Positions 1 to 54,902 of a stretch of DNA of 64,000 nt are shown here, in pieces. How positions within the stretch are numbered: position 1 is the stretch's first letter; each line of letters begins with the position of its first letter. Below the pieces are notes generated by a model. That model saw nothing but the letters and a program-made list of their open reading frames with translations. It searched no databases and was not told the origin of the DNA. The DNA comes from an uncultured delta proteobacterium (GTDB taxonomy: Bacteria; Desulfobacterota; RBG-13-43-22): positions 1 to 64,000 of the forward strand of contig CAVUPH010000024.1 of NCBI GenBank assembly GCA_963743305.1, given 5' to 3'. Made by a program: the position numbers and the translations under genes.

Positions 1-217
1 GCTGCAAAAACGGGAAGCGCTGTTTCTTCCCCTTTCCAAATGTCCAAAGTGACAGATTAACAGGGACCGGATCCACGCCAACTACTTGTCCGTTCGAGTC
101 GAGTTGAACTCTCAGAGTTGGTTTCCGACCAACGTCCTTAACATCGGAATCTCGTTTGACAATAACGATGCCAGCCTGCTGTGCCCCTCGCTCAACAACC
201 AAGAGTTCGTTAAGCAT
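1..217 (-). CDS. Probable Cas8c-like large subunit, 5' part (runs off window edge)
   Basis: Manual translation MLNELLVVERGAQQAGIVIVKRDSDVKDVGRKPTLRVQLDSNGQV... is open to base 1. Its ATG overlaps the end of cas5 (GATGCTTAA). The position after cas5 matches the type I-C order cas5-cas8c-cas7. Confidence 0.55.
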   Translation of the reverse strand, partial: MLNELLVVERGAQQAGIVIVKRDSDVKDVGRKPTLRVQLDSNGQVVGVDPVPVNLSLWTFGKGKKQRFPFLQ

Positions 218-896
218 CGGTCATCACCTCCAGTTCCCGGATAAGCAGCCATTCTTTAGGTACTTTGTAGTTAAGTATCCCTTCGTCAACTCGCACGTTT
301 TGGCGAAACTCTGGTTCATATTGACCACACGTCGGGCTGTTCCACACGCCCAAGAGCATTGAGGGGATTTCCAAAGAGAGCGCCTCATCTACTTCAGTGA
401 ACCCTTCACGGACTGGTCCCCAGTATGAACAGGTGAACTCGCTCCACCCCAAGCAAGGGGTGCGGTAGCATCTGCCTTGCCTTAACCGCCGATTGAAAAG
501 ATCCTGTAAATGATGGCCTGGATTGTTTTTTTTCTTCCATCGGGAGTTTACGATAACACCGTGCAGCCGATAGCACACATCGCTCAGGATGGTGGCAAAG
601 AACTGCATATTTGCTCCCTTACCAAGTAAATCAGCCTTACGCAACGGCCCACCATAATTGGTCGTGTAACGCTGAAACTGAATCTGACCACCCGACTCCC
701 CGATGCGCCTGCAGACTTCGACTCTCGTTGGACATATCCAGGCTGCCCCATCTGCAAAAAAGGCGATCGACTCGAACAAACCCTTTGCGGCCGACCACGT
801 TGGCACTGGGTAACTTGTCGGCGTCCCGCCTGTATCCGGTCTTGCGAACATGGCCGCAGGACCTGCCACTTCAAAAACAATTTCATATTTTTTCAA
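210..896 (-). CDS. cas5: CRISPR-associated protein Cas5 (type I-C/Cas5d-like)
   Basis: N-terminal FEVAGPAAMFARPD...SYPVPTWSAAKGLFESI, LSDVCYRL and C-terminal PCLGWSEF motifs typical of Cas5d. Likely TTG start at 896 after AAGGTGG. Confidence 0.85.
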   Translation of the reverse strand: MKKYEIVFEVAGPAAMFARPDTGGTPTSYPVPTWSAAKGLFESIAFFADGAAWICPTRVEVCRRIGESGGQIQFQRYTTNYGGPLRKADLLGKGANMQFFATILSDVCYRLHGVIVNSRWKKKNNPGHHLQDLFNRRLRQGRCYRTPCLGWSEFTCSYWGPVREGFTEVDEALSLEIPSMLLGVWNSPTCGQYEPEFRQNVRVDEGILNYKVPKEWLLIRELEVMTDA

Positions 897-949
897 AAAA
901 ATACCACCTTTCTCCATTTTTCTAGTCTTCAAGATTACATGGATAAGTT

Positions 950-1105
950 TAGGCCACAGTCCTGCCAGATATGCCCAGTCACCCCCGCCGAAAGGTTCGG
1001 CAAACCTCTGGCCATCTCCGCCACATTCCTCAAATGCTCCTCCAGCGGCTGCCATTCCTCCGGCGGCCGTCCGGCCAGGCTGTGGGCGTAGAATTTTTGG
1101 GGCAT
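950..1105 (-). pseudogene. cas3: Truncated, frameshifted Cas3 HD-nuclease N-terminus
   Basis: MPQKFYAHSLAGRPPEEWQPLEEHLRNVAEMAR continues in another frame as FAEPFGGGDWAYLAGLW. It then breaks off where HDLGK is expected. Confidence 0.75.
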
Positions 1106-39159: not shown

Positions 39160-40113
39160 ATGCCCCCCCTCGAGTTTCCTAATGTTCTGATCGGTCACGC
39201 TTCCTATCCGGACGGACCTACCGGTTGCACCGTGATCCTTTGCCCGGAAGGGGCGGTGGCCGGGATGGATGTCCGCGGTTCCGCCTCCGGCACCCGTCAG
39301 ACCGACTCCCTCTCCGCCCTCCACCGGGTACCCCACATTCATGGGATCTTATTGGCCGGGGGAAGTTCTTTCGGGCTGGATGCTACCGGCGGAGTGCTGC
39401 AATACCTGGAAGAAAAAGGGATCGGCTTTGATGTGACCGTTACCCGGGTACCCATCGTGCCTTCGGCTATCCTTTTTGACCTGGCCTTCGGCAATCCGGC
39501 CGTGCGGCCGGACAAGTCCCTGGGGTATCAGGCCTGTATGAACGCCTCGGCCGGCACGGTGGAGGAAGGGAGTGTCGGGGCCGGGATCGGAGCCACGATC
39601 GGGAAACTGTTCAGCGTCCTCCAGGCCACCAAGGGCGGCCTGGGCTATGCCTCCACCACCTTGGAAAATGGATTGACGGTCGCCGCCCTGGTGGTGGTCA
39701 ACGCCTTCGGCGATGTGCGGGATCTCGAGGGAAACATCCTGGCCGGGGCTCGCACCGGCCCCCGGGACACCACCTGGGCCAACACCTGGGCCTGCATGAA
39801 GCAGGGAATCCAGCCCAAACAATTCGTGGTCCAGAACACCACCCTGGGCGTGATCCTAACCAACGCCCGACTGGACAAGGCCGATGCCCGCAAACTGGCC
39901 CAGTTGGGCCAGAACGCCCTGGCCCGGGTGATCGCCCCGGTACATACCCTCTACGACGGGGACATCGTCTTCGCCCTGTCCGTGGGGACGGTCGAGGCCG
40001 GTCTGATGCAGGTGGGAATAGTGGCCCAGGAGATGCTCCAGGAAGCCATTCTCCGGGCGGTCAAAGCCGCCGACGGCCTGGGCCGCCTCCCGGCCTGGCG
40101 GGATTTTCACTAG
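39160..40113 (+). CDS. P1/S58 (DmpA-like) peptidase
   Basis: GCTVIL, DVRGSASGTRQ, GGSSFGL, QNTTLG and HTLYDGD. Confidence 0.88.
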   Translation: MPPLEFPNVLIGHASYPDGPTGCTVILCPEGAVAGMDVRGSASGTRQTDSLSALHRVPHIHGILLAGGSSFGLDATGGVLQYLEEKGIGFDVTVTRVPIVPSAILFDLAFGNPAVRPDKSLGYQACMNASAGTVEEGSVGAGIGATIGKLFSVLQATKGGLGYASTTLENGLTVAALVVVNAFGDVRDLEGNILAGARTGPRDTTWANTWACMKQGIQPKQFVVQNTTLGVILTNARLDKADARKLAQLGQNALARVIAPVHTLYDGDIVFALSVGTVEAGLMQVGIVAQEMLQEAILRAVKAADGLGRLPAWRDFH

Positions 40114-40157: not shown

Positions 40158-41617
40158 TCACCTGTTTTCTTCCGCCAAAAGGGCCTCTGCGGCAAAAATG
40201 CCGGACATGGCTGCCGGGGCTACGCCGAACCCCGGGTAGGTAGTCTGGCCGGCCTGATATAAACCGGAGATTTGAGAAGCGTGTGGAAACTGTGCTTTGA
40301 GAGCCGCCGCCGGGGATAGGCCATAGACGGCCCCTTTGTAAAGATGCAGACGACCCTGAAAATCCTTGGGGCTGCGGACCCTTTTTACGGCAATGTCGAT
40401 AGTATTTTGGCGGGTCAGCGCCTGGAGAGTCGATTCGACCACCTCCCCGGTTTTCCGCTCATTCCAATCGTCAGCCGGTAAATCCTGATTTATAGCCGGA
40501 AATATCTCGACGATGCTTCCGCCCTTTGGGGATAGCTCGGGCATCGTCACAGTGGGTACGAAGGTAATAAACCATTTCCCTTCATCCTTTCCTGGAGAGA
40601 AAAATTTGAAATGCTCCTTCATCATCGGAAAAATGATATGGGTATGGCTGCGGAGGCCGATCACGTTCTTTAACCCAAGTTGGATTGAAAACGCCTTGGG
40701 GGACAAGGGCGCCTTACGTATCTTCAGGCTCATTCCACTCGGCAATTCCTCGGGATCCAGGAGTGAACGGAAAGTAGCCATTCCATTAACGGTTGATATG
40801 ACGGCGTCCACCTCGATCGGACCGAATCCTTCAATTTTCAATCCAGAAACCCGTCCATTCTTCAGGAGTATTTTCTGGATCTTCGCGTTTAGAAATATTT
40901 CGCCACCATTATTTCTCAAAGCCCGACCCAGAGCTTCCGATATTTTTCCCATGCCTCCTTCAGGCAGATAATATCCCTTACTCAGGAGGGCAATGAGCCC
41001 TAATATTAATAGAATCGGTGTCTTCTGCGGCGGCGTGCCCGTATACCAGAGAGCGCCGGCCATGGCGGAGCGTACGGCCTGATCGCTGAAAAGGTCATTT
41101 ATTTCTGAGGCCACTGTCCCGTGGAATTTGTGAAGATGCGGCCACACTTTTGGAATCAGCCGTGAAAGTGAAAAGGGGTTGGTCAATAGGTCATTTTCAT
41201 AGAGCCGGAGCACGGGATCCCATTTCTTTCGCAGGTTATCAAGTTCTCTTTGCAGTCGGCCCGCATTACCCTTGGCCATCCCCCGGTTCACCCTTACCTG
41301 GTACTTATCACCGATAGACACAACCGTTCCGTCAGGCAATGTTGTCCGGTGAGAGGCCACTTTCCTTAATGGCAGGATTGAACGGCGTTCAAGGCCCAAC
41401 TTCGCTCAAAAACTCGATCGAGGATCCCGGGAAAACTTAAGTAAACAGCCCCATCGTTAAATGTATAATCCCCTATAGTTGTGTTTGCACAACAGCCGCC
41501 CAGCTTATCATTGGCTTCAAAAAGTTTCACTCTCAGGCCCCGTCGAGAGAGCAGGCCACCTGCGGAGAGCCCCGACACTCCACCCCCGATAATCCCTATG
41601 GTCCGAATTTTACTCAT
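40158..41617 (-). CDS. Phytoene desaturase (CrtI)-family FAD oxidoreductase, frameshift near 41400
   Basis: IIGGGVSGLSAG..LFEANDKLGG..YTFNDG; PEGGMGKI; C-terminal GLYQAGQTTYPGFGV...SG. Confidence 0.82.
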
Positions 41618-41666
41618 AGCGCCTTTTCCTGAACGGTCGAGAAGGGAGGGAATTGTGACCTCCTTT

Positions 41667-43202
41667 CTAATAACAGACGGTTGCCGGATCGGGCATCCCC
41701 CATCCCTCAAATTTTGAACCGAATCCTCTTTTCAGACAACTGCTCTTCAGCAAATTCTCGATAGCCAGTGACCGATTACGGTCCCGAGGCATTTCATAGA
41801 TGTTCTTGTTGCCGGAAAGCAGACAGGCAGCAGCGCCTGAGACAACCGGGGCCGCCATCGATGTTCCACTGCATGATCCGAAGCCGTTCCCTGGCAATGT
41901 GGATAACACCCCTACCCCTAAACCCGTTAATGATATCTGTTTACCGACGTTTGAAAATCCGGCAAGGAACTCATCCGGGTCAGTGGTACCCTTCGGCGGT
42001 CGGTCGACGAAGGCCTCGTCAATCACGCCGGGAGGAAAGGTCCCTTCCCTTCCCATGGCCGAAACGGCTGTTGCGCCGGGAAAAGCGGCCGGGTAATTGA
42101 CTGCCCCACGGAAATCGTTGCCCGCGGCCACTACGACGAGCACCCCATTATCCCGTGCATCCGTAATCGCCATCTTTAGGGCCTGATCGTTTGGGTCCCC
42201 GTTCTCGATGCTCAGATTAATGATATCGCACTTTTCAATTTGCGCTAGGCCTATGGCATTCAACAGATCTGCGCTATTGGCATTACCTCCCCCGAAAATC
42301 CGGTAAGATCGAATCCCGACCCCGGGTGCGAGCCCGCACAAAGTACCTTGAGCGCCGATAAGTCCCGCGACAAAGGTGCCGTGTCCTACCGAATCGTAAT
42401 AATTTCCAGAGGATTGTCCTAGAACCACATTTCGCCCCCCAATAAGATGCAGATCAAGGTGAGGTCCGACACCGGTGTCGATGACACCCACCGTGACACC
42501 GATCGAGGGATCAAACCGGGACTGGCGATAGTATTGACGCACGCCATCCCTGAAGTACAAATTCAGTGGTTCCAGGTCGAGATCGATAGACGGACTTATG
42601 GGAATATTTCGGCGAAAAGCACCCCACCGCCACAATTGTTCGCAGTAGAGCTGTTCAATGGATTGTCCTGAGAGTCGCATCATTACCTCTCCAGAAGCAT
42701 CGGTCACTTTTTCATCCCCTTCGTTACTTTTATAATTCGAGATGGCGGTCACCAATAGGCCGCTGCCTATTGGAACTCTTTTCCCATTTTCCTTTCCCCA
42801 AACCTTTATCGTAACGTCTGAACACTTCCCCTTCGGTCGCTTTGGTCTCATGACTCCAGCCATAGGTGCGGAAGCCTTCGCAAGGCCACCCGAAACTCCC
42901 GATGGCCTTCTAGGCGTGAGGGGCATGTTTAGCGGCCGGTCATACTTGAAGATAGGCCATCTGAGAACCGCTCGGTTTTGATCCACCGCACGAGCGGCCT
43001 CGTCGTCCAACTCCACCACCTTTGGACCTTGAGGCAGGATGGAATGAATGACCCGGATTTCCTTTCCCCCTGCAAGATTGGTTTTTTTTACCATAAAGGG
43101 CCTGGGGGGTCCTATAGATTCCTCCAGCGGATGCAGCTCCTTTAGCGCTTCACTAAGAAATCCTTTACGGGGTGTCAATAGGTACTGCTTGGTTTCGGCC
43201 AT
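41667..43202 (-). CDS. S8 subtilisin-family serine protease without signal peptide
   Basis: Triad VIDTG / HGTFVAG / GTSMA and oxyanion AAGND. ATG 43202 follows AAGGAGG. Confidence 0.9.
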   Translation of the reverse strand: MAETKQYLLTPRKGFLSEALKELHPLEESIGPPRPFMVKKTNLAGGKEIRVIHSILPQGPKVVELDDEAARAVDQNRAVLRWPIFKYDRPLNMPLTPRRPSGVSGGLAKASAPMAGVMRPKRPKGKCSDVTIKVWGKENGKRVPIGSGLLVTAISNYKSNEGDEKVTDASGEVMMRLSGQSIEQLYCEQLWRWGAFRRNIPISPSIDLDLEPLNLYFRDGVRQYYRQSRFDPSIGVTVGVIDTGVGPHLDLHLIGGRNVVLGQSSGNYYDSVGHGTFVAGLIGAQGTLCGLAPGVGIRSYRIFGGGNANSADLLNAIGLAQIEKCDIINLSIENGDPNDQALKMAITDARDNGVLVVVAAGNDFRGAVNYPAAFPGATAVSAMGREGTFPPGVIDEAFVDRPPKGTTDPDEFLAGFSNVGKQISLTGLGVGVLSTLPGNGFGSCSGTSMAAPVVSGAAACLLSGNKNIYEMPRDRNRSLAIENLLKSSCLKRGFGSKFEGWGMPDPATVCY

Positions 43203-44523
43203 GATTTCCTCCTTTCGCTCCCACAGTGAAGGGGAGATGGCTCCTTCCTCCAGACACTGCCGGGCGGTCTGTATAGACCCGATGGAACAGAAAATATTCA
43301 ATGCACTGCTCCCCGACACAAACCTTCATCCCCAGATCTTCACACCATTGCACCAATTGAACCAGTTTCAAAAGCGCATTGTTGGCCGGCTGCTTTTTTT
43401 GAGAACTGAACTCGGAGGCCGGTGTGGCCCTGAAAGGGTAGACATTTACAACCTCCAGGTACCTCCGGTGGTCCGCCAGAAATTGAATCGTTTTCTCAAA
43501 ATCGAGGCTGCTCTCCCCCGGGCAACCAATTACCAGAGAAGGGGCGGGCAATATTCCGCAGGAATCCAGCCCTTTTATGAAATCCGACATCTGCTTGGTG
43601 GTGATCCCTTTATTCATGGTCCGCAGAGTGCGGTCACTTCCAGACTCCAACCCAAAAAAGATCACTCGACAGCCTGCCCTCCCAAGGGCCTCCATCTTTT
43701 CTCCAGACAGGTCCGCCCTGGAGGCCCCACACCACGGTTTATTAAATCGCTCGAGGTAGCCGCAGAACTCATTCAAATTATGGCCATTGAGTGAATGATC
43801 CCTGCAGACCAGTACCGCCGGGTCATAGCGATCAATCAGCACCTCCAATTCCCTGAAAGCGGTCTTGGCCGACCGTTCAAGATATCCTGAATTCCCACCT
43901 TTAGAAAGGGAACAGAACCCGCATTTCCCCCAGGAGCATCCATGTTTCAATATGAAAGGAAGAAGGTCAAACAGGTATTTTCCCCGATGCGCATACCTGG
44001 GACTGGGCAGCAGGTCGTAATGGATCGGTTTTGCCGCCTCGCCCCTCGTAAAAAGATCATTCAAATGCACCGTTTGTACCCCGTTTTTCTTCAACGCTTC
44101 TTCGTTGGTCCATGAACCCAGCGAGTTGCCGAAGAAAAATACCCTGGTGTCGCCGGATACCTGCCTGATGGTGTGAGAGAGTCTCAAAACCGCTTCCGCG
44201 GGGACCGTAGGAAACCAGGAAGGAGTGGTAATATAAACCCGGGGATATTTCTCCCAAGAGATGGCGGCATACGCTCTTTCGATCTGGGTCTCAAGTTCAT
44301 CGTAAAAGGGATAAAGAAAATAGGCATCCGAGACTTTCGGGGCCTGGTCCATGACGTGCAATATTCGCTTGAGTTTTCTTCGGTTTCTGAAATAGAGTTC
44401 AGCATTTAGATCGATCACTTCCAGATCATATCGGCCTCCCAAGATCGCGGCGCCGTAACCCAGTAATAAATTGGGATGAAAGGGTAGATGAGGAAGCCAT
44501 GGGGTTACCAGAGCGGCCTTCAT
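43165..44523 (-). CDS. Radical SAM protein of the B12-binding/class-B-like group
   Basis: GCSWGKCGFC cluster motif, AGCRVIFFGLESGS..LRTMNKG and IGCPGES; N-terminal Rossmann-like region. GGAGG RBS before 44523. Confidence 0.85.
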   Translation of the reverse strand: MKAALVTPWLPHLPFHPNLLLGYGAAILGGRYDLEVIDLNAELYFRNRRKLKRILHVMDQAPKVSDAYFLYPFYDELETQIERAYAAISWEKYPRVYITTPSWFPTVPAEAVLRLSHTIRQVSGDTRVFFFGNSLGSWTNEEALKKNGVQTVHLNDLFTRGEAAKPIHYDLLPSPRYAHRGKYLFDLLPFILKHGCSWGKCGFCSLSKGGNSGYLERSAKTAFRELEVLIDRYDPAVLVCRDHSLNGHNLNEFCGYLERFNKPWCGASRADLSGEKMEALGRAGCRVIFFGLESGSDRTLRTMNKGITTKQMSDFIKGLDSCGILPAPSLVIGCPGESSLDFEKTIQFLADHRRYLEVVNVYPFRATPASEFSSQKKQPANNALLKLVQLVQWCEDLGMKVCVGEQCIEYFLFHRVYTDRPAVSGGRSHLPFTVGAKGGNHGRNQAVPIDTP

Positions 44524-44684
44524 TTTGTCCTCCAAGCAAGGGGACTTTCCACCCCAGCGCTAAAGATCCCTGAACTCCAGCAACACCCGTCCTTCCCGCT
44601 CGTCTGCGCTGAAACGCCAGGTCGAAGTTAAAAGACGAGACGATAACCTCATCTCATGATGCCGAAAATTTACGTCACTCAAAA

Positions 44685-44954
44685 CTAGTACCCCGTTTCC
44701 AAGAGAGCCTTCTTCGCCCGGCCCGTGGTCTTGAAAATTTCTAACAGCCGGGATACCTCTTCGGTGGTTACCCCTTCGTACCCCCAATCGACCAAGAGCT
44801 GGCGGAGTGCTTTTGCGTTTGCGCCTTCCTTGTTCAGCTCGCCTAGGAAATGCATCCCGACAGTTGAATCATCACGGCACGCGTCCGCAATCAAATCCAT
44901 CATATCCCTCTTAGGCTTTTGCTTCTTCGTCGGTACCTTTTTTGGCGTGGTCAT
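44685..44954 (-). CDS. 89-aa putative RiPP precursor (Nif11-like leader), C-terminus KKALLETGY
   Basis: Strong RBS AAGGAGGAGG; located between two radical SAM genes. LLVDWGYEGVTTEEV resembles the Nif11 A.E.G(Y/F).FT.EEL pattern. Confidence 0.6.
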   Translation of the reverse strand: MTTPKKVPTKKQKPKRDMMDLIADACRDDSTVGMHFLGELNKEGANAKALRQLLVDWGYEGVTTEEVSRLLEIFKTTGRAKKALLETGY

Positions 44955-45037
44955 ATTCCCTCCTCCTTTTTTTATCCGCACATGAGCCGTTCTGATCGAA
45001 CCTTTTATCCTCTGCGCAAGAAGGCGATGATTAGGGG

Positions 45038-46072
45038 TTACCCATAGGATGAGGCCCTGGACAGTACTCTCTGACAATAGGGGACCTGCGGGAACATGTC
45101 CCGGTACCATTCCGAAGGTCTCATCATCCCCTCCTGGCTGCAAAGGCAAACGTATTCGCAATTTCGACAAATCCTTTGATCCTTCGACACCGGCCGGCCA
45201 TACTCATTCGAGTTGATGAGGGTCGAGAGAATACCCGGAACATAGGAGCCGAAATGCTCTGTAGTTGAATGAGCCGGGGTGATGCGCCCTTCCGCGGTGA
45301 TCATCACGCTCCCCGGCCGGTATAAAGGAGGAGACCGGGTTATCCAGGGTAACTTGAGGATACCTGAGGCCACCGCCGCCAGGGGATTGTTCAATAAGTC
45401 CACTTTCAAACCGAAAAGATTCAGAAGGGAAATCATCCGGACCAGCCGGAGAAAGTCACCGGGACGCAGTACCTCCTTTGACAGATCAAATACATCCTCC
45501 GGCACGCGAATGAGCTGTATGAAAGACAACTGCTTGATGCCGGGGAACTCTATAAAAAGCTTTTCTGCAAAACGAGGCATTTCTGAAATGAGGCTTCTAC
45601 CGACGGGGCTAAAGACGTGCACGGGAAGACCAGCATCCAGGGCTTGGCGGATACCCCCTAGAGCCCGGTCGTATGACCCTTTCCCGCGTAGGCGGTCATG
45701 ATTTCGTCTCGGCCCCTGAAGGCTTATGGAAATAGATAACCCTTCATAGTTGGCAAGTTTACGGCTGACTTTACCGGTCAGCAAGGTCCCGTTGGTATTC
45801 AAAAAGGCCGTTTGGTATCCCAGGCCAAAGGCCTGATCGAGAATTTCCAGCAAACCTTCCCACAGGAGTGGCTCCCCCCCGGTCAGGTGCAGGTGCCTAA
45901 ATCCGGCTTCATATCCCTCCTGGACCATATTCTGAGCCAGAGCGGGGACAAGACCTGACCTCTGCGGACCGCGGGCGCGGACAAAGCAATGCGAGCAGGA
46001 ACTATTGCAGCGGGTCGTTACCTCAAGCCCGAGGCATTCGCCGTGAAACCGGAGAATAGCCAATTCGTTCAT
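45038..46072 (-). CDS. Radical SAM protein with C-terminal SPASM-like Cys cluster
   Basis: CNSSCSHC, TGGEPLL, TNGTLL, HDRLRGKGSY; C-terminal CRNCEYVCLC...YC. Confidence 0.88.
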   Translation of the reverse strand: MNELAILRFHGECLGLEVTTRCNSSCSHCFVRARGPQRSGLVPALAQNMVQEGYEAGFRHLHLTGGEPLLWEGLLEILDQAFGLGYQTAFLNTNGTLLTGKVSRKLANYEGLSISISLQGPRRNHDRLRGKGSYDRALGGIRQALDAGLPVHVFSPVGRSLISEMPRFAEKLFIEFPGIKQLSFIQLIRVPEDVFDLSKEVLRPGDFLRLVRMISLLNLFGLKVDLLNNPLAAVASGILKLPWITRSPPLYRPGSVMITAEGRITPAHSTTEHFGSYVPGILSTLINSNEYGRPVSKDQRICRNCEYVCLCSQEGMMRPSEWYRDMFPQVPYCQRVLSRASSYG

Positions 46073-47097
46073 TGTATCCTTCCTGATGGTTCGCTTTCTT
46101 TTTTTGACGCTTCGCCTTTTGGGGTAAGATTATTGAGGTCTCGAAATTCCTTGGCCAACCCTATCATCCGGTGAGCTTCGACCCTAGATGCCGCTGTCTC
46201 TAATTCCGTGCCTATCTTTTCTTTGATTTTGTCAATAAGGTTGTTTTCCAAAATATGTTTGAGAATAGCCTTCAAGGAATCTTTGGCCCTAGCCCGGCCC
46301 CTGCTCCTATAATGATTCCAGTGAGTCCTCATTTTATCAGGAAGGCCAATATATATTGCCGAGTGTTTCCCCTTTTCGAGATCACGCTTTATATCCCGAA
46401 TATCATCGAGAAGCCGCCAAGCAATCCCGAAGGAACCATAGGCCCTCTCAACATCCCTGGTAAGATCCGAGAATCCGGTCATCTTCAGGGAGAGGAGAAT
46501 GGGAGCCACCATGCCGATGGCCATCTGTTTTCTAAAACGATGACCATAGCCAACAAGAGATATTTGCCCTTTTGAATCTCGGGTGCTCTCATAATAATCA
46601 TCAATAAAGCCTCGGACGGTTTTCATTCCTTCGGGAAGGCCTTCCGCCAGATTGCGGAAGGCCCGGTTCATGAGCGTCCAGGCCTGGCTTCTCAGGAGTA
46701 ATGTCAGAGGGGAAACGGAAAGCTGTTTATCGGTGAGATGATCGTCGAGAGAGTGAAGAAACATCGCCAGGGATTGGGCGGTTACTGCATGGGCAACATC
46801 CTTTTTTTCCAAACGCTTGGTAGGGAGAGCCCGATCGCGGCTGAGCCAGTAAATAATGGACCAGGCAGGAGGATAATAATGAGCAAAAAAATCCAACTTG
46901 TTGCCTGGAATTATCCCCGCATACTGCAGGAGGAAAAGGATCGAATCGGTCTGAGTGGACTTAGGAAGGGATCGGCAAAAGAAAAGGATTTCTTTGCTGA
47001 ACCGCCGATAAAAGGCGGTTTCTCTTTTCGAAAGTACACCCTTACCGAAATCTACGGTTTCGCAGTGAAGCAGGAAATCCCTGATAGTACCTTTCAT
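46069..47097 (-). CDS. Class I isoprenoid-synthase-fold protein (candidate prenyltransferase)
   Basis: Two Asp-rich motifs, HSLDDHLTD and FGIAWRLLDDIRD, in an all-helical protein. Its stop overlaps the next ATG (ATGA). Confidence 0.78.
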   Translation of the reverse strand: MKGTIRDFLLHCETVDFGKGVLSKRETAFYRRFSKEILFFCRSLPKSTQTDSILFLLQYAGIIPGNKLDFFAHYYPPAWSIIYWLSRDRALPTKRLEKKDVAHAVTAQSLAMFLHSLDDHLTDKQLSVSPLTLLLRSQAWTLMNRAFRNLAEGLPEGMKTVRGFIDDYYESTRDSKGQISLVGYGHRFRKQMAIGMVAPILLSLKMTGFSDLTRDVERAYGSFGIAWRLLDDIRDIKRDLEKGKHSAIYIGLPDKMRTHWNHYRSRGRARAKDSLKAILKHILENNLIDKIKEKIGTELETAASRVEAHRMIGLAKEFRDLNNLTPKGEASKKESEPSGRIQ

Positions 47098-47138: not shown

Positions 47139-50100
47139 TTAGATCTCAGTAGGTTCAAGACCTGCCCGGTTAATCACCGAAGTCAGATCCTCCAGTTCAT
47201 GGTGCAGGCCCATTTCACGGAACATCGTTTTCGCCCTCAACAAAGGCTCCTTGGCTCTCAGCGCTTCGGGACGCGAGCCTTCGCGAATGCCCTCACAAAG
47301 GCAGGTGCCCATTTCAGCGCAGGTCCTTGAGAGCTGAGGACGGGCACCCAGACTTTCCCCTTCATGAATGGCCTTACTCCACCACGTATAAGCGCTTTTC
47401 TGATCGCGGATCAACCAGTGGTAGAGACCCATTAATCTATAGGATTCCGTCCGGTATTGCGCCGCTTTCCGACAAGTCTTGATCGCCATTTTTCCTGAAT
47501 TGAAAGCCTTTCTGCGATTTTCAGAAGCTCCCTCTCTTTGGCCGGCCCGAAGAGATTCTTCCAGACGACATAGGTAGTATTCGAACTGACTCCGATAAAA
47601 GACGGATAACTGCGTGGGAACGGCCTGCACTTCAGATTTGATCCGCTGGGCGTGATCAAGTGACTTTCCCGCCGCCTCCGTTTCTTTCACCAACAGGTGT
47701 ATCAAAGCCTTTAGGCAATGCATATTCATTAAAGGTAAGGTGAAGCCCCATCTCTGGAAAAGGTCGATTCCTCGAGTCACTTCGGCAGTGGCTTCCTGGA
47801 TCAGGCGGCATTCAATGAGCAGACTAATATTCAAGCAGATAGTGCAAACAACGAGAGATGTCGTTTTCATAGACTTCGGCGATATCGCGCAGCTTGGTCA
47901 CCGTCAGTCTGGCCGCCTCAAATTGCCCCTGGTAAACTTGGGCGAGTCCGTGCCAGTAATAATGCTGGGAGGCGTAATACATTTCCCCAAGTCTCAGATT
48001 TCTGGTCACCAAATCTTCGTTGCAATCGAAAATATCCTTCCACTGTCCTTTGAGAAAAAGGTGAATCGTATCCACGAGATCATAGACTATTTTTTGCTTG
48101 GCATCATCCGGAGCCAGTCTCGGCTTGGCGTAATCCATGATTCGTCTGCTAATACTCAGGGAAAGACCGGTGAAGGAGAACAGGGCACTGGCACCAGCAA
48201 AAATGCCTATACCCAACTTGAACTGTGCCAGATCGAAATGGACGATGGTGTCATAGAAGAAAAAGGATTCGATAAAAAAACGCTTGGGGTTGATAACCAC
48301 CAGGGCCTCACCCTTTTTATAGAAAAGCTCTACCGCTTCGGTATCCTGCCAAGTGGGTAGTCTCTTGAACCAGAAGGAAGGAAAGTACAGGGCCAGGATG
48401 AAGGTCGTGAAACTGGACAGGAATTTTAAGGCGGTGGTCAAAGCATTTTGGGGGAATTCGCCCCAATAGTAGTTCAGGGCCTTGTCGAAATGCTCCACCG
48501 CCTCGGCGTAGTGCCCTCGATTAAAAAGAGCTAATCCGATGTTTTTCTCCAGCATGGCCACCTTTTCCGGATCGGCGCTGTGGCCTTGCAGCTTGCGATA
48601 AATGTTAAGCGCCTCCTGGTAATAGGTAAGCGCTTCGTTGGAAGCCGATGATCGCAAAGCCTCTTCTCCGGCGTTGATCAAGTACTCTTCGGCTTTCTCC
48701 AGACTCTCGGCCCTGCTGTAATGATAGGCCAACATCCCGTAGAATTCGTGAAGCCGCTCGTTAAAGACTTTTTCTATAGCCTGGGCCACTCTTTGATGGA
48801 TCTCTTTTCGCTTCCGGATCAGGATGGACTCATAGGCCGCCTCCTGGGTCAAGGCGTGCTTGAAGAGATACTCCACCTCCTCCATCCGTTTTCGTTCCCG
48901 AATGAGCTGAATCTCCTTAAGGTAATCGAGCCTTCTGTCAATCCCCTCGATGGTGCCGGTTACTTCGGTGAGGATCTTATAGAAGAAGTTTCGGCCGATG
49001 ACGGAGGCCACCCGGACCACGTTCCTGGTTTCTTCATCCAGGCGATCGATTCGAGCCATGATGAGGGCATGGATACTCTGGGGAATGACGATGTGTTGGA
49101 TCTTCTCCGTCACCCGGTATTCTCCCTTTTCCGGGACCACGGCACCTTCATGGATCAGGGAGCGGACCACTTCCTCGATGAAAAAGGGGTTCCCTCCTGC
49201 TCTCTGGAGAATCTGCTCCCGAAGTTTATTGGGAAAACTATCGGTCCGGTGGAGATTCGTGAGGAGTTGCTCACTTTCCGATTCTTTCAAGGGGTCTAAT
49301 TCGATCTTGGTCCAGTAGGCCGGATAGTTCTCCTGGATGGAGGCCGTGACTTGTTCTCCCGTGTCGGTATAGCCGGGACGGAAGACTAAAATAAAAAGAA
49401 TCCGGTATTCTTCCACCAGGCGAAAGAGGGCCTTCAAAAGTCCCAGGGAACTCACATCCACCCAATGGAAGTCTTCCATATAAATCACCGTAGGCCGGAT
49501 TGCGGAGCCCTTGATGAGGATCTCCCGCATGCTCTTAAAGATCAGCTTTTCTAAAGCCTCCCCTTCGATGCCCTTAACCCGCTGGGCGTATTTCCCGGTG
49601 AGCTTCATCCCCATGAGGGTGGCAATGAAGGGAAAGATCTCCCCCACCTCCTGGAAATGAATGTCCCGGATGGCCCGCTCCAGTTTCCACTGGGCCTCGG
49701 TATCGGTGTCATCCTCCCTGATTTGGGACCAGTGTTTCAGGGCGTCGATGATAGGATAAAAACTCAGACCTCTTCCCATGGAAAGGGATCGACCTTCGAG
49801 AATGGTGGTCTTTTTAGCGACCTCGGTCAGGCGCAACTCAGCCAGAAGGCGGGACTTCCCGATCCCCGGCTCGCCGCTGACGGTGATAATCCCTCCCCTA
49901 CCATTGATGAGGCGCACGACCTGAAGCGATAAGCGGTCCATTTCCTTATCTCTTCCCACCAAAGGGGAATCGACGCCCACCGATCGTCTTTTTCTCTCTT
50001 TTATCTCTACGACACGGTAAACCCGGACCGGATCGGTTTTGCCTTTGACCCGAACGGGTACGAGCGGTTCAAAATCAAAAAACCAATCAGCCTGACGAAA

Positions 50101-50744
50101 GGTGCCGTCACCCGCTAAAATCTCACCGGGCCTCGCCAGCGTAGACAACCGTGACGCCAGATTAACGGTATCTCCCATAACCCCCAGAATTCCATTTCCC
50201 TTGGTTACTTCACCGGTAACGACCAGTCCTGTATTGATGCCTGTATGCATGGCCAGACGTTTTCCAACTTTAGGCTCAAACTGAGGACTGATCGCCTCGA
50301 TTCGTTCATGGATTTCTCTCGCGGTTCGGATTGCTCGCACTGGATCATCTTCATGAACCTTGGGCACCCCAAAAAACGCCACCACCGCATCCCCGATAAA
50401 TTTCTGAATAGTTCCTTCATATTTGCTCACCGTGGCGGTAATTTCCCCGAAGATCTGATTCATGATTTTCTTGAGCTCTTCGGGATCTAAGCGCTCAGAC
50501 ATGGCCGTATAACCGGAGAGATCGGAGAAAAGAACCGTCACCTGCTTTCGTTCCTCTTCGATGGCTGGTTCTATCTGTCCGGTTCAGCGGATTCATCTAA
50601 TTGCTGCCCGCACCTGCCGCAGAACCGAAATCCATCGGGATTTACGAAATGGCAGCCTGGGCAAATCCCCTCCAATTTGGCACCACATTTTCTACAAAAA
50701 TCCAGGCCATCGGGGTCAGGATATTGACATTGGGGGCATTTCAT
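47139..50744 (-). CDS. Double zinc ribbon-adenylate/guanylate cyclase-AAA(STAND)-TPR protein, frameshifts near 50575 and 47830-47870
   Basis: MKCPQCQ..FCRKCG..CPGC..FCGRCG; VLFSDLSGYT, KFIGDAV, GDTVNLASRL; GEPGIGKS; GNPFFIEE; TPR-like C-terminus. Confidence 0.85.
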
Positions 50745-51144: not shown

Positions 51145-52503
51145 TCAGAATCCAATTTTGCTGCTGATCGTTACCACCCGTTCCCGAATTTCTTCCCAAT
51201 CCAGGGTCAACAGCCTGCGCTGCCGCATGACCATTTGCCCGGCAATGAAGACGGTGTCCACATCCGCCCCGGAGGCCGCATAGACTAAATGGGAAAAGGG
51301 GTGGTAGAGGGGGGTCAAGTGGGGTTGGTTCAGATTGATCAAAATCAAATCCGCCTGTTTGCCCACTTCCAAAGAACCGATTTCTTTTTCCAGCCCCAGG
51401 ACCTTGGCCGCCTCCAGGGTAGCCATTTCCAGGACCGAATGGGCCCCCAACAGGGTAGGGTCGAGGCGATGGACCTTGTGTAGGCGAGCAGTGGTACCCA
51501 TTTCCCGGAAGAGATCCAGGTCATTATTGCCGGCACAGCCGTCCGTGCCCAACCCCACGACTATTCCCCGCGCCAGCAGTTCCACCACCGGGGTCACTCC
51601 CGCCCCCAGCTTCATATTGCTCTCCGGGCAATGACTGACGCTCACCCCGGCTCGGGCCAGGAGTGCCATTTCCTCCTGATCCGGATAATTCACATGGACC
51701 CCGATAGTGGAATCATCCAGACAACCCAACCTATGCAAATAACGAACCGGGGTCAGACCGGTTTGACTCTGGACCATGGCCACCTCCTCCTTGGTTTCCG
51801 CCAAGTGAATAAATAAAGGAATCGCCTTTTCCAGGGCCAGGGCCCTGGCCTTTTTAAGGGTCTTCGCGGAGCAGGTGTAAGGAGAATGGGGGAACAACCC
51901 CAGTCGGATCCGAGGAGATCGTCCGGACCATTTTTCGATGAAATCCCGGGCCGAGCGGATATTGTCGGCCGGGTCCGGGACCCCCGGGGCTGGAAAATCA
52001 ATCACCCCCGGGGCCAGGACAGCCCGCATGCCGGACTGATAAATCGCTCGGGCAGCGCCATCCAAACAAAAATAGCCGTCGGCCAGGGTGGTGGTCCCGG
52101 ACCGGATCATCTCAGCGCAAGCCAGCAGGCTTCCCCAATAAACCGTCTCCGGATTGATAAACCGCGCCTCCGCGGGAAAGATATGTTTTTCCAGCCAGTC
52201 CTTCAAGGGCAGGTCGTCGGCCAGTCCCCGGAAAAGGGTCATGGCCGAATGGGTGTGGGTATTGATCAGTCCCGGCAGGACCAGAACCCCCCGGCCGTCA
52301 ATCACTTCCCGGGCCGTCCAGCGCTCCGGACAGCGCGCACCGAGATACATTATCCGGCCGTTTTTGATGCCCAGGGCGCCCGCCGGGATCGGCTCCGGAA
52401 AGATGGGGGACATGGTCAGGATCAGCGCGTCCCTGATCAAAAAATCAAAATCTTCCACTATCCGGTTCTCCAGGGGTTGTTTTGATTCTTGATTTTTGGT
52501 CAT
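51145..52503 (-). CDS. MtaD/DadD-like amidohydrolase (MTA/SAH/5'-dAdo deaminase family)
   Basis: NTHTH, IHLAET, HCPESNMKL and GTDG. Confidence 0.88.
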   Translation of the reverse strand: MTKNQESKQPLENRIVEDFDFLIRDALILTMSPIFPEPIPAGALGIKNGRIMYLGARCPERWTAREVIDGRGVLVLPGLINTHTHSAMTLFRGLADDLPLKDWLEKHIFPAEARFINPETVYWGSLLACAEMIRSGTTTLADGYFCLDGAARAIYQSGMRAVLAPGVIDFPAPGVPDPADNIRSARDFIEKWSGRSPRIRLGLFPHSPYTCSAKTLKKARALALEKAIPLFIHLAETKEEVAMVQSQTGLTPVRYLHRLGCLDDSTIGVHVNYPDQEEMALLARAGVSVSHCPESNMKLGAGVTPVVELLARGIVVGLGTDGCAGNNDLDLFREMGTTARLHKVHRLDPTLLGAHSVLEMATLEAAKVLGLEKEIGSLEVGKQADLILINLNQPHLTPLYHPFSHLVYAASGADVDTVFIAGQMVMRQRRLLTLDWEEIRERVVTISSKIGF

Positions 52504-52516
52504 TTATTAATGACGC

Positions 52517-52609
52517 TTCGCCCTTTTGGGTGAGTACCCCCTAGATCTGGTATGGCCTGATTTCAGTCTAATCTACTAGATATTGTGGCCACCCACCCAA
52601 AAGGGCGAA
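52517..52609. repeat. Intergenic inverted repeat
   Basis: TTCGCCCTTTTGGGTG ... CACCCAAAAGGGCGAA. Confidence 0.7.
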
Positions 52610-52617
52610 CAACCTTA

Positions 52618-53961
52618 TTAATTTAGCCGGGCCAGCCGCAAAGACTCAGCGAAACGATTCGCCCGGGATAAAATTTCTTTAAGATCCAAGGTCAACAGCT
52701 CCCGGTTCTTCATCACCGTTCGGCCATTGATGATCACCCGGGTGACATCGGCACCCCGGGCCGCGTAAACTAGATGGGAATAGATGTTATAAAGTGGAGT
52801 CAGGTGCGGTTGATCCAGGTCCAAGAGTATAATATCGGCTTTTTTTTCGGGCTCCAGGGACCCCACCTGGGATTCCAGCCCCAGGACCCGGGCCCCGCCG
52901 CGGGTAGCCATCCGGAACACGGTGCGGGCATCCATGACGGTGGGATCCAGACGATGGACCTTATGCAGTTTGGCCGCCGAGTCCATTTCCTGAAACAAGT
53001 CCAAATTGTTGTTGCTGGCGCAGCCGTCGGTCCCCAGGCCGACGCAGACCCCCCCGCGTAACAGCTCTACCACCGGGGCCACCCCGGAGGCCAGTTTCAT
53101 ATTACTTTCCGGGCAATGGACCACCTTGACCCCCGCGGCCGCCAGGGTTTTCTGGTCGGTCTCCGAGAGTACCACGCAGTGCACGGCGATCAGTTGCTCG
53201 TCGAGCAACCCCAATCGGGCCAGGTGCTGGGTCGGCGAGACCCCGTATTGTTTCAAAATCTGATCGGCTTCGGTTTGAGTTTCCGCCAGATGGATGATCA
53301 GGGGAACCCCGGTTTCAGCGGATAACCTTTTGGCCTGAAGGAGCAGCTCCGGGCCGCAGGTGAACGGGGTGTGGGGTTCAACGGCCACGGAAATCAGGGG
53401 GTCATCCCGGTATTTTCGGATCAGCTCACGGGTATAAGCAAACCCCTTTTCCAGGGGCCCGTAATTGGGGGAGGGAAAATCGTAAAGCACTTCCCCCACC
53501 AATGCCCGCAGGCCGGCTTCCTGGGCGGCCCGAGCCACCTGACCCTCGAAAAGGTACATGTCGCAGAAAGTGGTGGTACCGGACAAGATCATCTCCGCAC
53601 AAGCCAGCAAGGTCCCCCAATAGACCCATTCCCCGGTCAGGCGGCGTTCCGCCGGAAAGATATGGTTTTCCAGCCAATCCATCAGCGGCAGGTCGTCGGC
53701 CAAGCCGCGCAGTAAGGTCATAGCCGCATGGGTATGGCTATTGATCAAACCGGGCAAAACGGCTCCTCCGCGGGCATCAACGACTTCCTTGGCCTTTAAG
53801 GCCAACGGCGCCAGCTCTTCTTCCGCTCCTACGGCCAAGATAGAATCTCCGCTAATCGCCAGGGCCCCGGGATGAAAAATATTCAGCCGGTCATCCATGG
53901 TGACGATCAGGCCGTTTTTTATGAATAGATCAATGGGTTCTTCTGATATCCGATCGCGCAT
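52618..53961 (-). CDS. mtaD: MtaD/DadD-like amidohydrolase, second paralog
   Basis: NSHTHAAM, DMY, IHLAET, HCPESNMKLASG and GTDGCASNN. Confidence 0.88.
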   Translation of the reverse strand: MRDRISEEPIDLFIKNGLIVTMDDRLNIFHPGALAISGDSILAVGAEEELAPLALKAKEVVDARGGAVLPGLINSHTHAAMTLLRGLADDLPLMDWLENHIFPAERRLTGEWVYWGTLLACAEMILSGTTTFCDMYLFEGQVARAAQEAGLRALVGEVLYDFPSPNYGPLEKGFAYTRELIRKYRDDPLISVAVEPHTPFTCGPELLLQAKRLSAETGVPLIIHLAETQTEADQILKQYGVSPTQHLARLGLLDEQLIAVHCVVLSETDQKTLAAAGVKVVHCPESNMKLASGVAPVVELLRGGVCVGLGTDGCASNNNLDLFQEMDSAAKLHKVHRLDPTVMDARTVFRMATRGGARVLGLESQVGSLEPEKKADIILLDLDQPHLTPLYNIYSHLVYAARGADVTRVIINGRTVMKNRELLTLDLKEILSRANRFAESLRLARLN

Positions 53962-54047
53962 ATTCCTCTCTTTCTTGAACAGGTGAGATCCCTAAAAGAC
54001 TTTTTGCCGCGTGGTTTTGTGGCAAGATAGTTTTGATATTCGGTCGG

Positions 54048-54902
54048 TTAACCTGTTATCTTCCTCCCGCTCTTCAACTCCTGCGGGGTCAATTTGGAAA
54101 CCACCCCTTCGACCAGGGCCATCAATCGGGGTTCGGCTTTTCGCGCCGTGGCAATAATGGCCTTCAGCGAAGCGGGCTCCTGGCAGTCCGGTCGGTTGAC
54201 GTTGGAAATGACCGATATTCCCATTACGCGCAGACGGCACTGCACTGCGGTAATGACTTCCAGGACGGTAGACATGCCCACGGCTTGGGCCCCCATCTGT
54301 CTGAGCATTCGCGTTTCCGCCGGCGTCTCCAGGCTGGGTCCCTTGACCGCTACGTAGACCCCCCGGCGAAGAGGGATTTGTTTTTGCAGAGCCACTTTTT
54401 CGGCCAGGTCCGTCAAGCGGCGGTCATAAACGGCGGAGAGGTCGGGAAAACGGTCTCCCCAATACTCCTGGTGGGAACCTACCAGAGGATTCTCTCCGGT
54501 AAGATTGATGTGATCCATGATCAGCATCAGATCCCCGGACTCGAATCCGGGGTCCAGACCCCCGGCGGCATTGGAAACAATCAGGACCTTCACGCCTAAT
54601 CCGGCCAGTACCCGAATAGGGAAACCGATCTCCTGGGGCGCATAGCCTTCGTAGAGATGGAACCGGCCCTGGAGGGCGACTACCGGTTTACCGGCCAGGG
54701 TCCCCCAAACCAACTGGCCCTGATGGGACTCCACGGTGGAATGGGGGAAATAGGGTATTTGCTCATAGGGAATGGACCGGGCCTTTTTGATCCCGCCAGC
54801 CGACTCACCCAGACCGGTGCCCAGGATAAGTCCGATGGGGGCCTCGCCACCCATTTTCTTCTTCAAGTAGGCGACTGTTTTTAGAAATCGTTCTTTGTTC
54901 AT
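54048..54902 (-). CDS. punA: Purine nucleoside phosphorylase (trimeric type)
   Basis: GLILGTGLG, QGRFHLYEG, NAAGG, GPSLETPAE and VGMSTV. Confidence 0.92.
   Translation of the reverse strand: MNKERFLKTVAYLKKKMGGEAPIGLILGTGLGESAGGIKKARSIPYEQIPYFPHSTVESHQGQLVWGTLAGKPVVALQGRFHLYEGYAPQEIGFPIRVLAGLGVKVLIVSNAAGGLDPGFESGDLMLIMDHINLTGENPLVGSHQEYWGDRFPDLSAVYDRRLTDLAEKVALQKQIPLRRGVYVAVKGPSLETPAETRMLRQMGAQAVGMSTVLEVITAVQCRLRVMGISVISNVNRPDCQEPASLKAIIATARKAEPRLMALVEGVVSKLTPQELKSGRKITG

Follow-up and report, generated by a model that had tools for sequence, protein, structure and literature searches.

A candidate peptide precursor that ends in tyrosine, encoded beside radical SAM and isoprenyl-synthase-fold enzymes in an uncultured delta proteobacterium

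Introduction

In the pathways leading to pyrroloquinoline quinone (PQQ, from PqqA) and to the pearlins (3-thiaglutamate), one or two residues of a peptide matter, the remainder is a handle for the enzymes and a protease frees the product. Leaders of the Nif11 type are characterised by a cleavage motif of the Gly-Gly type and a nearby C39 peptidase/ABC exporter. To our knowledge, MftC of the mycofactocin system is the only well-studied precedent for chemistry of a radical S-adenosylmethionine (SAM) enzyme on a tyrosine that is the last residue of a peptide. According to PMC10288494, MftC decarboxylates MftA oxidatively at its C-terminal Tyr and next cyclises the Val before it, and MftA requires a C-terminal Val-Tyr. 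A different aromatic modification is described in PMC5331326, PMC13731918 and PMC4008528, where ComQ prenylates a Trp of ComX. Here we analysed an open reading frame (ORF) of 89 amino acids (aa) from an uncultured delta proteobacterium (contig CAVUPH010000024.1 of assembly GCA_963743305.1), located in a stretch of 64,000 nucleotides which is called the window throughout, and we compared it with these systems.

The ORF belongs to a minus-strand gene cluster with the order regulator, 342-aa enzyme with the fold of trans-isoprenyl diphosphate synthases, radical SAM enzyme, 89-aa ORF, B12-type radical SAM enzyme, S8 subtilase and CrtI-like oxidoreductase (Table 1). It probably encodes a precursor of the type found among peptides that are made on the ribosome and modified after translation (RiPPs), or a scaffold peptide that is consumed, with the C-terminal Tyr as the residue that would be modified. 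One point in its favour is that the gene is co-inherited with enzymes of the RiPP-tailoring type. In searches of the open full-text literature, no description of a system combining such a peptide, a radical SAM enzyme and a synthase-fold enzyme was found. The combination of a Nif11-like docking domain without Gly-Gly, the requirement for Tyr at the chain end and the pairing of a radical SAM with an isoprenoid-synthase-fold enzyme is new in this respect. If the reading is true, the window contains a representative of a peptide-modification system that is widespread but has escaped annotation, and this system would offer a route to new tyrosine chemistry on peptides.

Results and Discussion

A small gene in a conserved set of four

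On the minus strand, the start codon of the ORF is preceded by a very strong Shine-Dalgarno core, AAGGAGGAGG(G), in the context AAAGGAGGAGGGAAT-ATG. The first-pass annotation of the window, made from the letters alone, had pointed to this strong ribosome-binding site and to a short ORF hidden in a longer call, and had described the product as a Lys/Pro-rich N-terminal tail followed by a helical body and a terminal Tyr; inspection of the minus strand verified the former and the description of the product is correct. The longer call is a mechanical 161-aa frame starting at TTG (44685-45170), which encloses the 89-aa ORF and reaches into the 3′ end of the radical SAM gene located upstream. Residues 1–16 of the peptide contain seven Lys/Arg and three Pro. 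As the close relatives keep this basic N-terminal stretch, with K6 and K13 invariant among the ten closest, the ATG at 44954 is supported as the start. The gene is present as a single copy in the window's own genome. No further small ORF fits into the cluster, where intergenic gaps of 41, 83 and 149 nt lie among the genes of the regulator, the synthase-fold enzyme, the radical SAM enzyme, the precursor and the B12-type enzyme.

The surroundings of the gene were compared in 83 syntenic loci, 3 genomic and 80 metagenomic, including the identical duplicates L038/L082, L060/L061 and L070/L071. The metagenomic loci were obtained by a scan with the alignment of the 342-aa protein, which gave 529 pattern matches and 207 confirmed places, the best 80 of which were kept. 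Forty-six loci were informative, as they included the complete radical SAM gene and no less than 450 nt behind it. In 45 of them, the radical SAM gene is immediately followed by a small ORF with a terminal Tyr, and no locus was devoid of a candidate: in 41 loci the ORF matches the family profile, while four (L057, L067, L073 and L078) carry at the same place a small ORF missed by the profile, with the ends ...GGRGY, ...VVPLY, ...VVPMY and ...GKSY, respectively. In the remaining locus, L050, the family domain runs into a 168-aa form without a terminal Tyr. Because of this constant position and of 43 relatives found by profile search (see below), the 89-aa ORF is a genuine gene, beyond chance.

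Of the 58 loci whose upstream sequence extends to at least 600 nt, 56 carry the regulator gene there on the same strand. Downstream, the genes vary. Among the 37 loci with at least 1200 nt behind the peptide gene, the next gene encodes a B12-type radical SAM enzyme in 22, a protein of the FAD monooxygenase type in 8, a second radical SAM enzyme with a SPASM domain in 2 and an S8 protease in 1, with another gene or nothing in 4. Anywhere downstream, S8 proteases and CrtI-like proteins occur in six of these loci each and PNPOx-like proteins in three. From these counts, the conserved set consists of the regulator, the 342-aa enzyme, the radical SAM enzyme and the peptide, and the B12-type radical SAM gene is the commonest gene after the precursor without being universal. 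The S8 protease, on which the initial description had relied as a partner, lies downstream in only 6 of 37 loci; it was therefore rejected as a defining partner and is regarded as an accessory.

A peptide family that ends in tyrosine

An exhaustive profile search of 1.84 billion representatives returned 43 relatives of the peptide at E ≤ 1e-3, 17 of them at E ≤ 1e-10; all have lengths of 60–128 aa and fused forms were not seen among them. A word-based search retrieved just two relatives with 81% and 64% identity. Within the same phylum, the family was detected in 4 of 401 genomes searched, the window's own genome included. A narrow profile matched none of 100 genomes of relatives, and a broader one later revealed the copy in G002, a genome of the same genus. 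Pattern scans of genome and metagenome contigs with the peptide alignments gave no confirmed locus, and the ESM Atlas contained no usable match.

In an alignment of 54 family members with a mean column identity of 24%, the terminal Tyr is the sole invariant column (54 of 54). The best-conserved block is the motif (D/N)F-x-DFI-x-DA of the N-terminal helix, accompanied by F36, L50, G58 and V/I62. Beyond residue 75 or so, both length and sequence of the tail vary, and the penultimate residue of the database relatives is G in 15, K in 10 and A in 6 cases, others including Q, R, S, D, M, L and I. The conserved helical domain, the variable tail and the fixed last residue correspond to a precursor-like protein, as had been proposed at the outset, and not to a uniformly conserved accessory protein. 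Since Tyr must be the last residue and not merely lie near the end, its free carboxylate presumably acts in recognition or chemistry.

Two candidates for the modified aromatic site had been put forward, the C-terminal TGY and the internal WGY. Judged by invariance, the terminal Tyr stands and the internal site does not: Trp57 is kept in only 9 of 54 sequences, and the position of Tyr59 is occupied by Tyr in 45 and by Phe in 8. Trp57/WGY was therefore rejected. In the Nif11 alignment Tyr59 falls on the GY/GF motif of that fold and, on this evidence, is a structural residue, so that WGY would be part of the Nif11-like fold.

Tandem copies of the peptide gene occur in two loci, L072 and L013, the second copy being degenerate in the latter. 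Several tail motifs recur, namely D-W-x-Y, W-P-x-P-P-x-Y, P-C-(D/K/A)-F-x-x-x-Y and N-R-D-Y, in loci L015, L024, L027, L032 and L038 as well as in L010, L075 and L080. This recurrence suggests peptide subfamilies, and a link between the class of the tail motif and the type of the tailoring gene (B12-type radical SAM or FAD monooxygenase) is possible. The two profile-missed ORFs of L067 (3307-3576) and L073 (4122-4640) are small and Ala-rich, have a body which is not Nif11-like and share the end ...GGVVP(L/M)Y.

A distant Nif11-like domain without Gly-Gly

The helical body of the peptide had initially been taken for a Nif11-like leader. At the level of single-profile searches this could not be reproduced: hmmscan with Pfam gave no match to the peptide even at E ≤ 10, including Nif11 (PF07862, gathering score 23.8 bits), and a Nif11 hidden Markov model (HMM) applied to the whole genome of the window at E ≤ 1 did not list the 89-aa ORF among its matches. 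An NHLP-type leader, also suggested for examination, found no counterpart in NCBIfam at E ≤ 0.1, where the only match was an IS5 transposase region (E = 0.099, 12 bits versus a cut-off of 110). True Nif11 peptides were detected with the Nif11 HMM at 1e-4 in 24 of the 401 phylum genomes, and none of the four genomes with the peptide family was among these (no matches in G000 and G002; G196 and G377 lie outside the 24).

Comparison of profiles with profiles gave a different picture. Using hhalign, the 54-sequence family alignment matched an alignment of 21 bona fide Nif11 domains with a probability of 94.1% and E = 1.2e-7 over 47 columns, placing peptide residues 17–69 on positions 2–48 of the 48-position Nif11 domain and including the G-Y/F motif. 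In a local rerun the real score was 34.5, compared to 8.5 for the reversed template and 11.6 for the best of 30 column shuffles. The profile-profile result thus upholds the Nif11-like leader which the HMMs did not recognise, and the helical body (residues ~17–75) is best described as a putative, distant Nif11-like leader domain.

As had also been noted before, the peptide contains no Gly-Gly, and an S8 protease gene is present. No conserved Gly-Gly column exists in the 54-sequence alignment, and a C39-peptidase ABC exporter was found neither among the cluster genes nor among the 35 other ORFs of at least 200 aa in the window. The peptide thus resembles Nif11-type leader peptides (N11P, e.g. 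prochlorosin precursors) in that the whole Nif11 domain is aligned and a variable C-terminal part follows. It differs from them by the missing PF07862 match, by the lack of a Gly-Gly/Gly-Ala motif and of a C39 peptidase/ABC exporter, and by a core that is cut down to a short tail with the last residue as the sole fixed one.

Predicted docking on the radical SAM enzyme

An AlphaFold2 model of the peptide had a mean predicted local distance difference test (pLDDT) value of 76 and comprises four helices (residues 18–26, 32–41, 47–57 and 64–86), with low confidence over the first ~16 and the last ~10 residues. Its structural neighbours are three-helix bundles of Myb, homeodomain and transposase helix-turn-helix (HTH) proteins with Z = 4.7–5.5 (VIA-align), Z near 5 being the noise level stated by the structure-search tool for helical models. 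That the 89-aa protein is a small DNA-binding HTH/homeodomain-like bundle which regulates the cluster by means of a basic N-terminal arm is hardly credible: apart from these neighbours, the faint IS5 match and the Lys-rich N-terminus would fit, but the Z values are noise for a helical model, residues aligned with K5/K6 exist in just 26 of 54 sequences so that about half of the family lacks the arm, an invariant Tyr behind a variable tail would not be needed, and the match to the Nif11 profile is much stronger.

For a complex of the peptide and the adjacent radical SAM enzyme, modelled with SAM and two 4Fe-4S clusters, three prediction runs and three controls were made. Docking scores of 0.85, 0.73 and 0.74 (median 0.74) were obtained, versus 0.23 for the best of the three controls; the docking mark in the calibration of the tool is reached by 116 of 157 solved complexes and by 2 of 215 mismatched pairs, and the present runs with custom alignments and ligands lie outside this calibration. 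The runs share at least 67% of their contacts, with a partner pLDDT of 71 or more. In the confident contacts, peptide residues 18–28, 33, 37 and 66–78 meet enzyme residues 162–170, 205–221 and 240–243, among them the invariant P166, L217, N218 and G221, which links the most conserved motif of the peptide family to a conserved surface of the enzyme. The model supports leader-type binding of the peptide on the radical SAM enzyme. Co-folding had been suggested for each enzyme of the cluster; with the radical SAM enzyme, the partner for which it was carried out, the helical domain docks as expected for a leader and the tail with Tyr89 is not placed.

The radical SAM enzyme and the comparison with mycofactocin

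The three cysteines of the CxxxCxxC motif (C22/C26/C29) and four further ones (C302, C305, C311 and C333) are kept in all of 29 compared sequences of the radical SAM enzyme. The Pfam SPASM model did not match the 344-aa protein; judged from their number, the four extra cysteines could serve a single auxiliary cluster. Among proteins of solved structure, those closest in sequence are the decarboxylase BlsE (1.4e-11), SkfB (9e-11) and PqqE (5e-6). NCBIfam matches cover the N-terminal core only, for instance the Rv1681 family with 77 bits versus a cut-off of 380 and the MftC model TIGR03962 with 56.2 bits (E = 3.1e-15) versus 265. The radical SAM core begins at residue 17 and an N-terminal RiPP recognition element (RRE) domain is absent; Pfam scans of the cluster proteins also gave no PqqD or RRE family match.

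The locus shares with mycofactocin a small precursor with Tyr as last residue, a radical SAM enzyme, here with a putative auxiliary Fe-S domain, and peptidase and redox tailoring genes in the cluster. In contrast to the Val-Tyr of MftA, the window peptide ends in Gly-Tyr and the penultimate residue of its family is varied. Further differences are the low score of the radical SAM enzyme with the MftC model, the absence of an MftB/PqqD-type RRE protein among the proteins found in the window cluster, the leader consisting of a folded, Nif11-like domain of ~60 residues, and the co-conserved isoprenyl-synthase-fold enzyme.

An enzyme with an isoprenyl synthase fold

The 342-aa protein has no Pfam or NCBIfam match. 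Its AlphaFold2 model (pLDDT 85, predicted template modelling (TM) score 0.84) was compared with known structures by Foldseek, and all top matches are farnesyl diphosphate, geranylgeranyl diphosphate or polyprenyl synthases, with a probability of 1.0, TM values of 0.55–0.64 and 10–14% identity. Two invariant Asp-rich DDxxD motifs are present, LHSLDDHLxD and WRLLDDIRD, comprising D118, D119 and D123 and D231, D232 and D235, respectively. Sequence-based evidence for this family is faint: homologues gave weak Pfam matches to polyprenyl_synt (E = 0.0058) and Terpene_synth_C (E = 2e-4), the former (PF00348) in one homologue only with 16.3 bits versus a cut-off of 27 and not in the window protein, and the best result of a profile search of the PDB was E = 0.22. 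The FQ in front of the second Asp-rich motif of a hexaprenyl synthase aligns to WR in the 342-aa protein, which hints that the latter is not a chain-elongating synthase. At E ≤ 1e-5, 677 clusters of homologues were found, typically with 60–74% identity, and some of their sources are proteins of Desulfomonilaceae, Desulfomonile and Syntrophales metagenome-assembled genomes.

The arrangement is reminiscent of ComX/ComQ (ComQXPA), where a precursor gene also stands beside that of an isoprenyl-diphosphate-synthase-fold enzyme with a sensor gene alongside, and a single aromatic residue is fixed in the otherwise variable C-terminal part of the precursor. The fixed residue is here the terminal Tyr, whereas the Trp of ComX lies three residues from the end, and the tails in the 54-sequence alignment contain no conserved Trp. 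Moreover, a radical SAM enzyme is also part of the core, an exporter is not evident, the sensor is a cytoplasmic cyclase/AAA_16/TPR protein instead of a ComP/ComA two-component pair, and the polyprenyl_synt score given above stays below its cut-off.

Proposed pathway and alternatives

The following pathway is conceivable for the precursor or scaffold peptide. The Nif11-like helical domain is predicted to dock on the conserved surface of the adjacent radical SAM enzyme, while the last ~13 residues would form a free, fast-evolving tail whose only fixed feature is that the chain ends in Tyr. This C-terminal Tyr with its free carboxylate would be the site of chemistry. The radical SAM enzyme would act on it first, our leading guess being an oxidative decarboxylation as catalysed by MftC or another Tyr-centred radical reaction. 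The synthase-fold enzyme would act next, presumably by a ComQ-like prenyl transfer, unless prenyl transfer precedes the radical step. Lineage-specific tailoring might follow, here C-methylation by the B12-type radical SAM enzyme, a CrtI-like redox step and trimming or release by the S8 protease. All these proposals on chemistry are made by analogy, because the matches of the enzymes lie far below the curated cut-offs. The product probably acts inside the cell, since no exporter is conserved among the syntenic loci and the S8 protein has, by inspection, no N-terminal hydrophobic signal sequence. The small-molecule-type tailoring enzymes of the cluster are a feature in common with the scaffold pathways to PQQ and the pearlins. 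A PEARL/tRNA-dependent ligase and a PqqB/C/D/E set are missing here, PqqE and the radical SAM enzyme are related in sequence only distantly, and the gene itself encodes the Tyr at the chain end.

Several findings weigh against this assignment. The peptide is not recognised by the Pfam Nif11 and NCBIfam models, and all family matches of the enzymes are far under their curated cut-offs. The terminal Tyr is not absolute, as 41 of 45 database sequences end in it and 4 do not (one carries an internal deletion, two are extended or divergent and one is a copy of L013's degenerate second gene), and 2 of the 47 HMM matches in the loci end otherwise. The docking scores stand outside the calibration of the tool; only the helical domain was placed in the complex model, and the tail with Tyr89 was not put into the active site. 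Finally, the regulator and the CrtI-like gene are split in the window, so that the cluster may be decaying here or assembly errors may be present.

The placement of the helical domain alone fits a partner subunit that is not a substrate equally well. The 89-aa protein would then be an accessory of the radical SAM enzyme, chaperone-like or acting in recognition, which is bound and remains unmodified. Its helical domain is indeed folded and conserved, it is predicted to bind to a conserved enzyme surface with the tail unplaced, and the enzyme itself has no N-terminal RRE domain. Nevertheless, we consider such an accessory unlikely. A hypervariable tail of variable length with an invariant last residue would not be needed, and the peptide diverges far faster than the enzymes, with <20% identity between the window and G002 compared to 44–45% for both partner enzymes. 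Moreover, tandem copies of the peptide occur, the cluster has no further conserved ORF that could be the substrate and no relationship to the PqqD/RRE families was found.

A reusable carrier in the style of LysW or of the sulfur carriers, on whose C-terminal residue a metabolite is built before the protein is recycled, is very unlikely. The small folded domain and the invariant C-terminal residue are compatible with a carrier, and FAD monooxygenases, PNPOx-like, CrtI-like and B12-type radical SAM enzymes usually act on small aromatics. However, the conserved set contains no ATP-grasp or adenylating ligase, and the protease present in some loci suits consumption of the peptide over its recycling. 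Tyr also offers no side-chain carboxylate or thiocarboxylate chemistry, which distinguishes the peptide from known carriers.

Exchange of the cassette between close relatives

In G002 (locus L009), a cluster is found at the same chromosomal place, with aconitase and S58 peptidase genes on one side and a putative amidohydrolase gene on the other. The G002 peptide is barely recognisable by the family profile (E = 1.5e-7), and the tailoring genes differ, as they encode a SPASM radical SAM enzyme, an S53-like protease and an FAD monooxygenase. The regulators of the window and G002 are 70–92% identical up to about residue 700, but only 33–47% identical from about residue 720 to the end. Over 14 intact loci (91 pairs), identity of the C-terminal part of the regulator tracks that of the synthase-fold enzyme with r = 0.90 and that of the radical SAM enzyme with r = 0.82, and the N-terminal part correlates less (r = 0.63 and 0.31, respectively); the 91 pairs are not independent and discordant pairs occur both ways. 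The cassette seems, from these identities, to have been exchanged together with the C-terminal repeat domain of the regulator. Physical linkage alone could explain part of the correlation. The S58 (DmpA-like) peptidase gene at 39160-40113 (plus strand) borders the cluster on the opposite strand; its product shares 91% identity with the homologue from G002 over 240 aligned residues, and the gene probably lies outside the cassette.

The polymorphism of comQXP extends into part of comP. A cassette that is polymorphic between close relatives, with part of the sensor included, is a further likeness of the present locus to ComX/ComQ. The pherotype polymorphism of comQXP is described in PMC4408185. 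By analogy, the cassette might be a pherotype signalling module of the ComQXP kind in anaerobic bacteria of the Desulfobacterota type, in which the radical SAM and synthase-fold enzymes would turn the terminal Tyr of the Nif11-like peptide into a prenylated, Tyr-derived signal that is read inside the cell by the variable C-terminal repeats of the regulator, with a cyclic nucleotide as output. We regard this extension of the precursor reading as doubtful. The signal in such a module might take the form of a lipopeptide or of a small molecule excised from the scaffold, and a STAND cyclase that reads a signal derived from a peptide may be a first example of its kind.

Features of the cluster and its neighbourhood

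Table 1. Positions of the 89-aa ORF, its parts, associated signals and the other genes of the cluster in the window.
Feature	Position	Strand	Remarks
Cyclase/AAA_16 (STAND)/TPR regulator, core neighbour	47139-50541	minus	frames 47824-50541 (905 aa) and 47139-47870 (243 aa)
Trans-isoprenyl diphosphate synthase-fold enzyme, 342 aa, core partner	46069-47097	minus	stop/start overlap with the radical SAM gene
Radical SAM enzyme, 344 aa, core partner	45038-46072	minus	CxxxCxxC, C22/C26/C29; predicted docking site
Shine-Dalgarno site AAGGAGGAGGG	44958-44968	minus	3 nt before the ATG; read directly
Precursor or scaffold peptide ORF (candidate), 89 aa	44685-44954	minus	translation ends ...KKALLETGY
Parts of the 89-aa peptide			residues 1-16, Lys/Pro-rich tail; ~17-75, putative Nif11-like helical docking domain; ~76-88, variable tail; Tyr89, invariant and last
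Weak terminator-like hairpin with T-run	44635-44657	minus	28 nt past the precursor stop codon
Class-B (B12-type)-like radical SAM enzyme, 456 aa	43165-44535	minus	family likeness far below cut-offs
S8 subtilase, variable accessory	41667-43319	minus	~270-aa N-terminal part of no known family
CrtI-family FAD oxidoreductase, variable accessory	40158-41710	minus	frames 41366-41710 (GxGxxG N-terminus) and 40158-41399

Homologues of the regulator in three genomes are single ORFs of 1186–1204 aa, and the window copy is divided into two overlapping frames; the split is a frameshift or an assembly error near 47824-47870. The same applies to the CrtI-like gene, whose frame 40158-41399 matches the family profile only from position 100. 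The hairpin behind the precursor gene may act as a partial terminator, but terminator-like sites are no commoner here than in shuffled sequence (11 observed versus a shuffle mean of 14.4; folding z-score 0.91).

Just upstream of the cluster, at 51145-54902 on the minus strand, two paralogous amidohydrolases (452 and 447 aa) and a phosphorylase of the PNP/MTAP type are encoded, a set which we take to resemble a salvage pathway for 5′-deoxyadenosine and methylthioadenosine, by-products of radical SAM enzymes. In G002, a 447-aa ORF is located in the place corresponding to the amidohydrolases of the window; should this prove to be the same gene, the neighbours may have housekeeping roles. An ORF that lies at the beginning of the window, at 210-1055 (minus strand), contains a Cas5-type CRISPR-associated domain (E = 2.2e-8).

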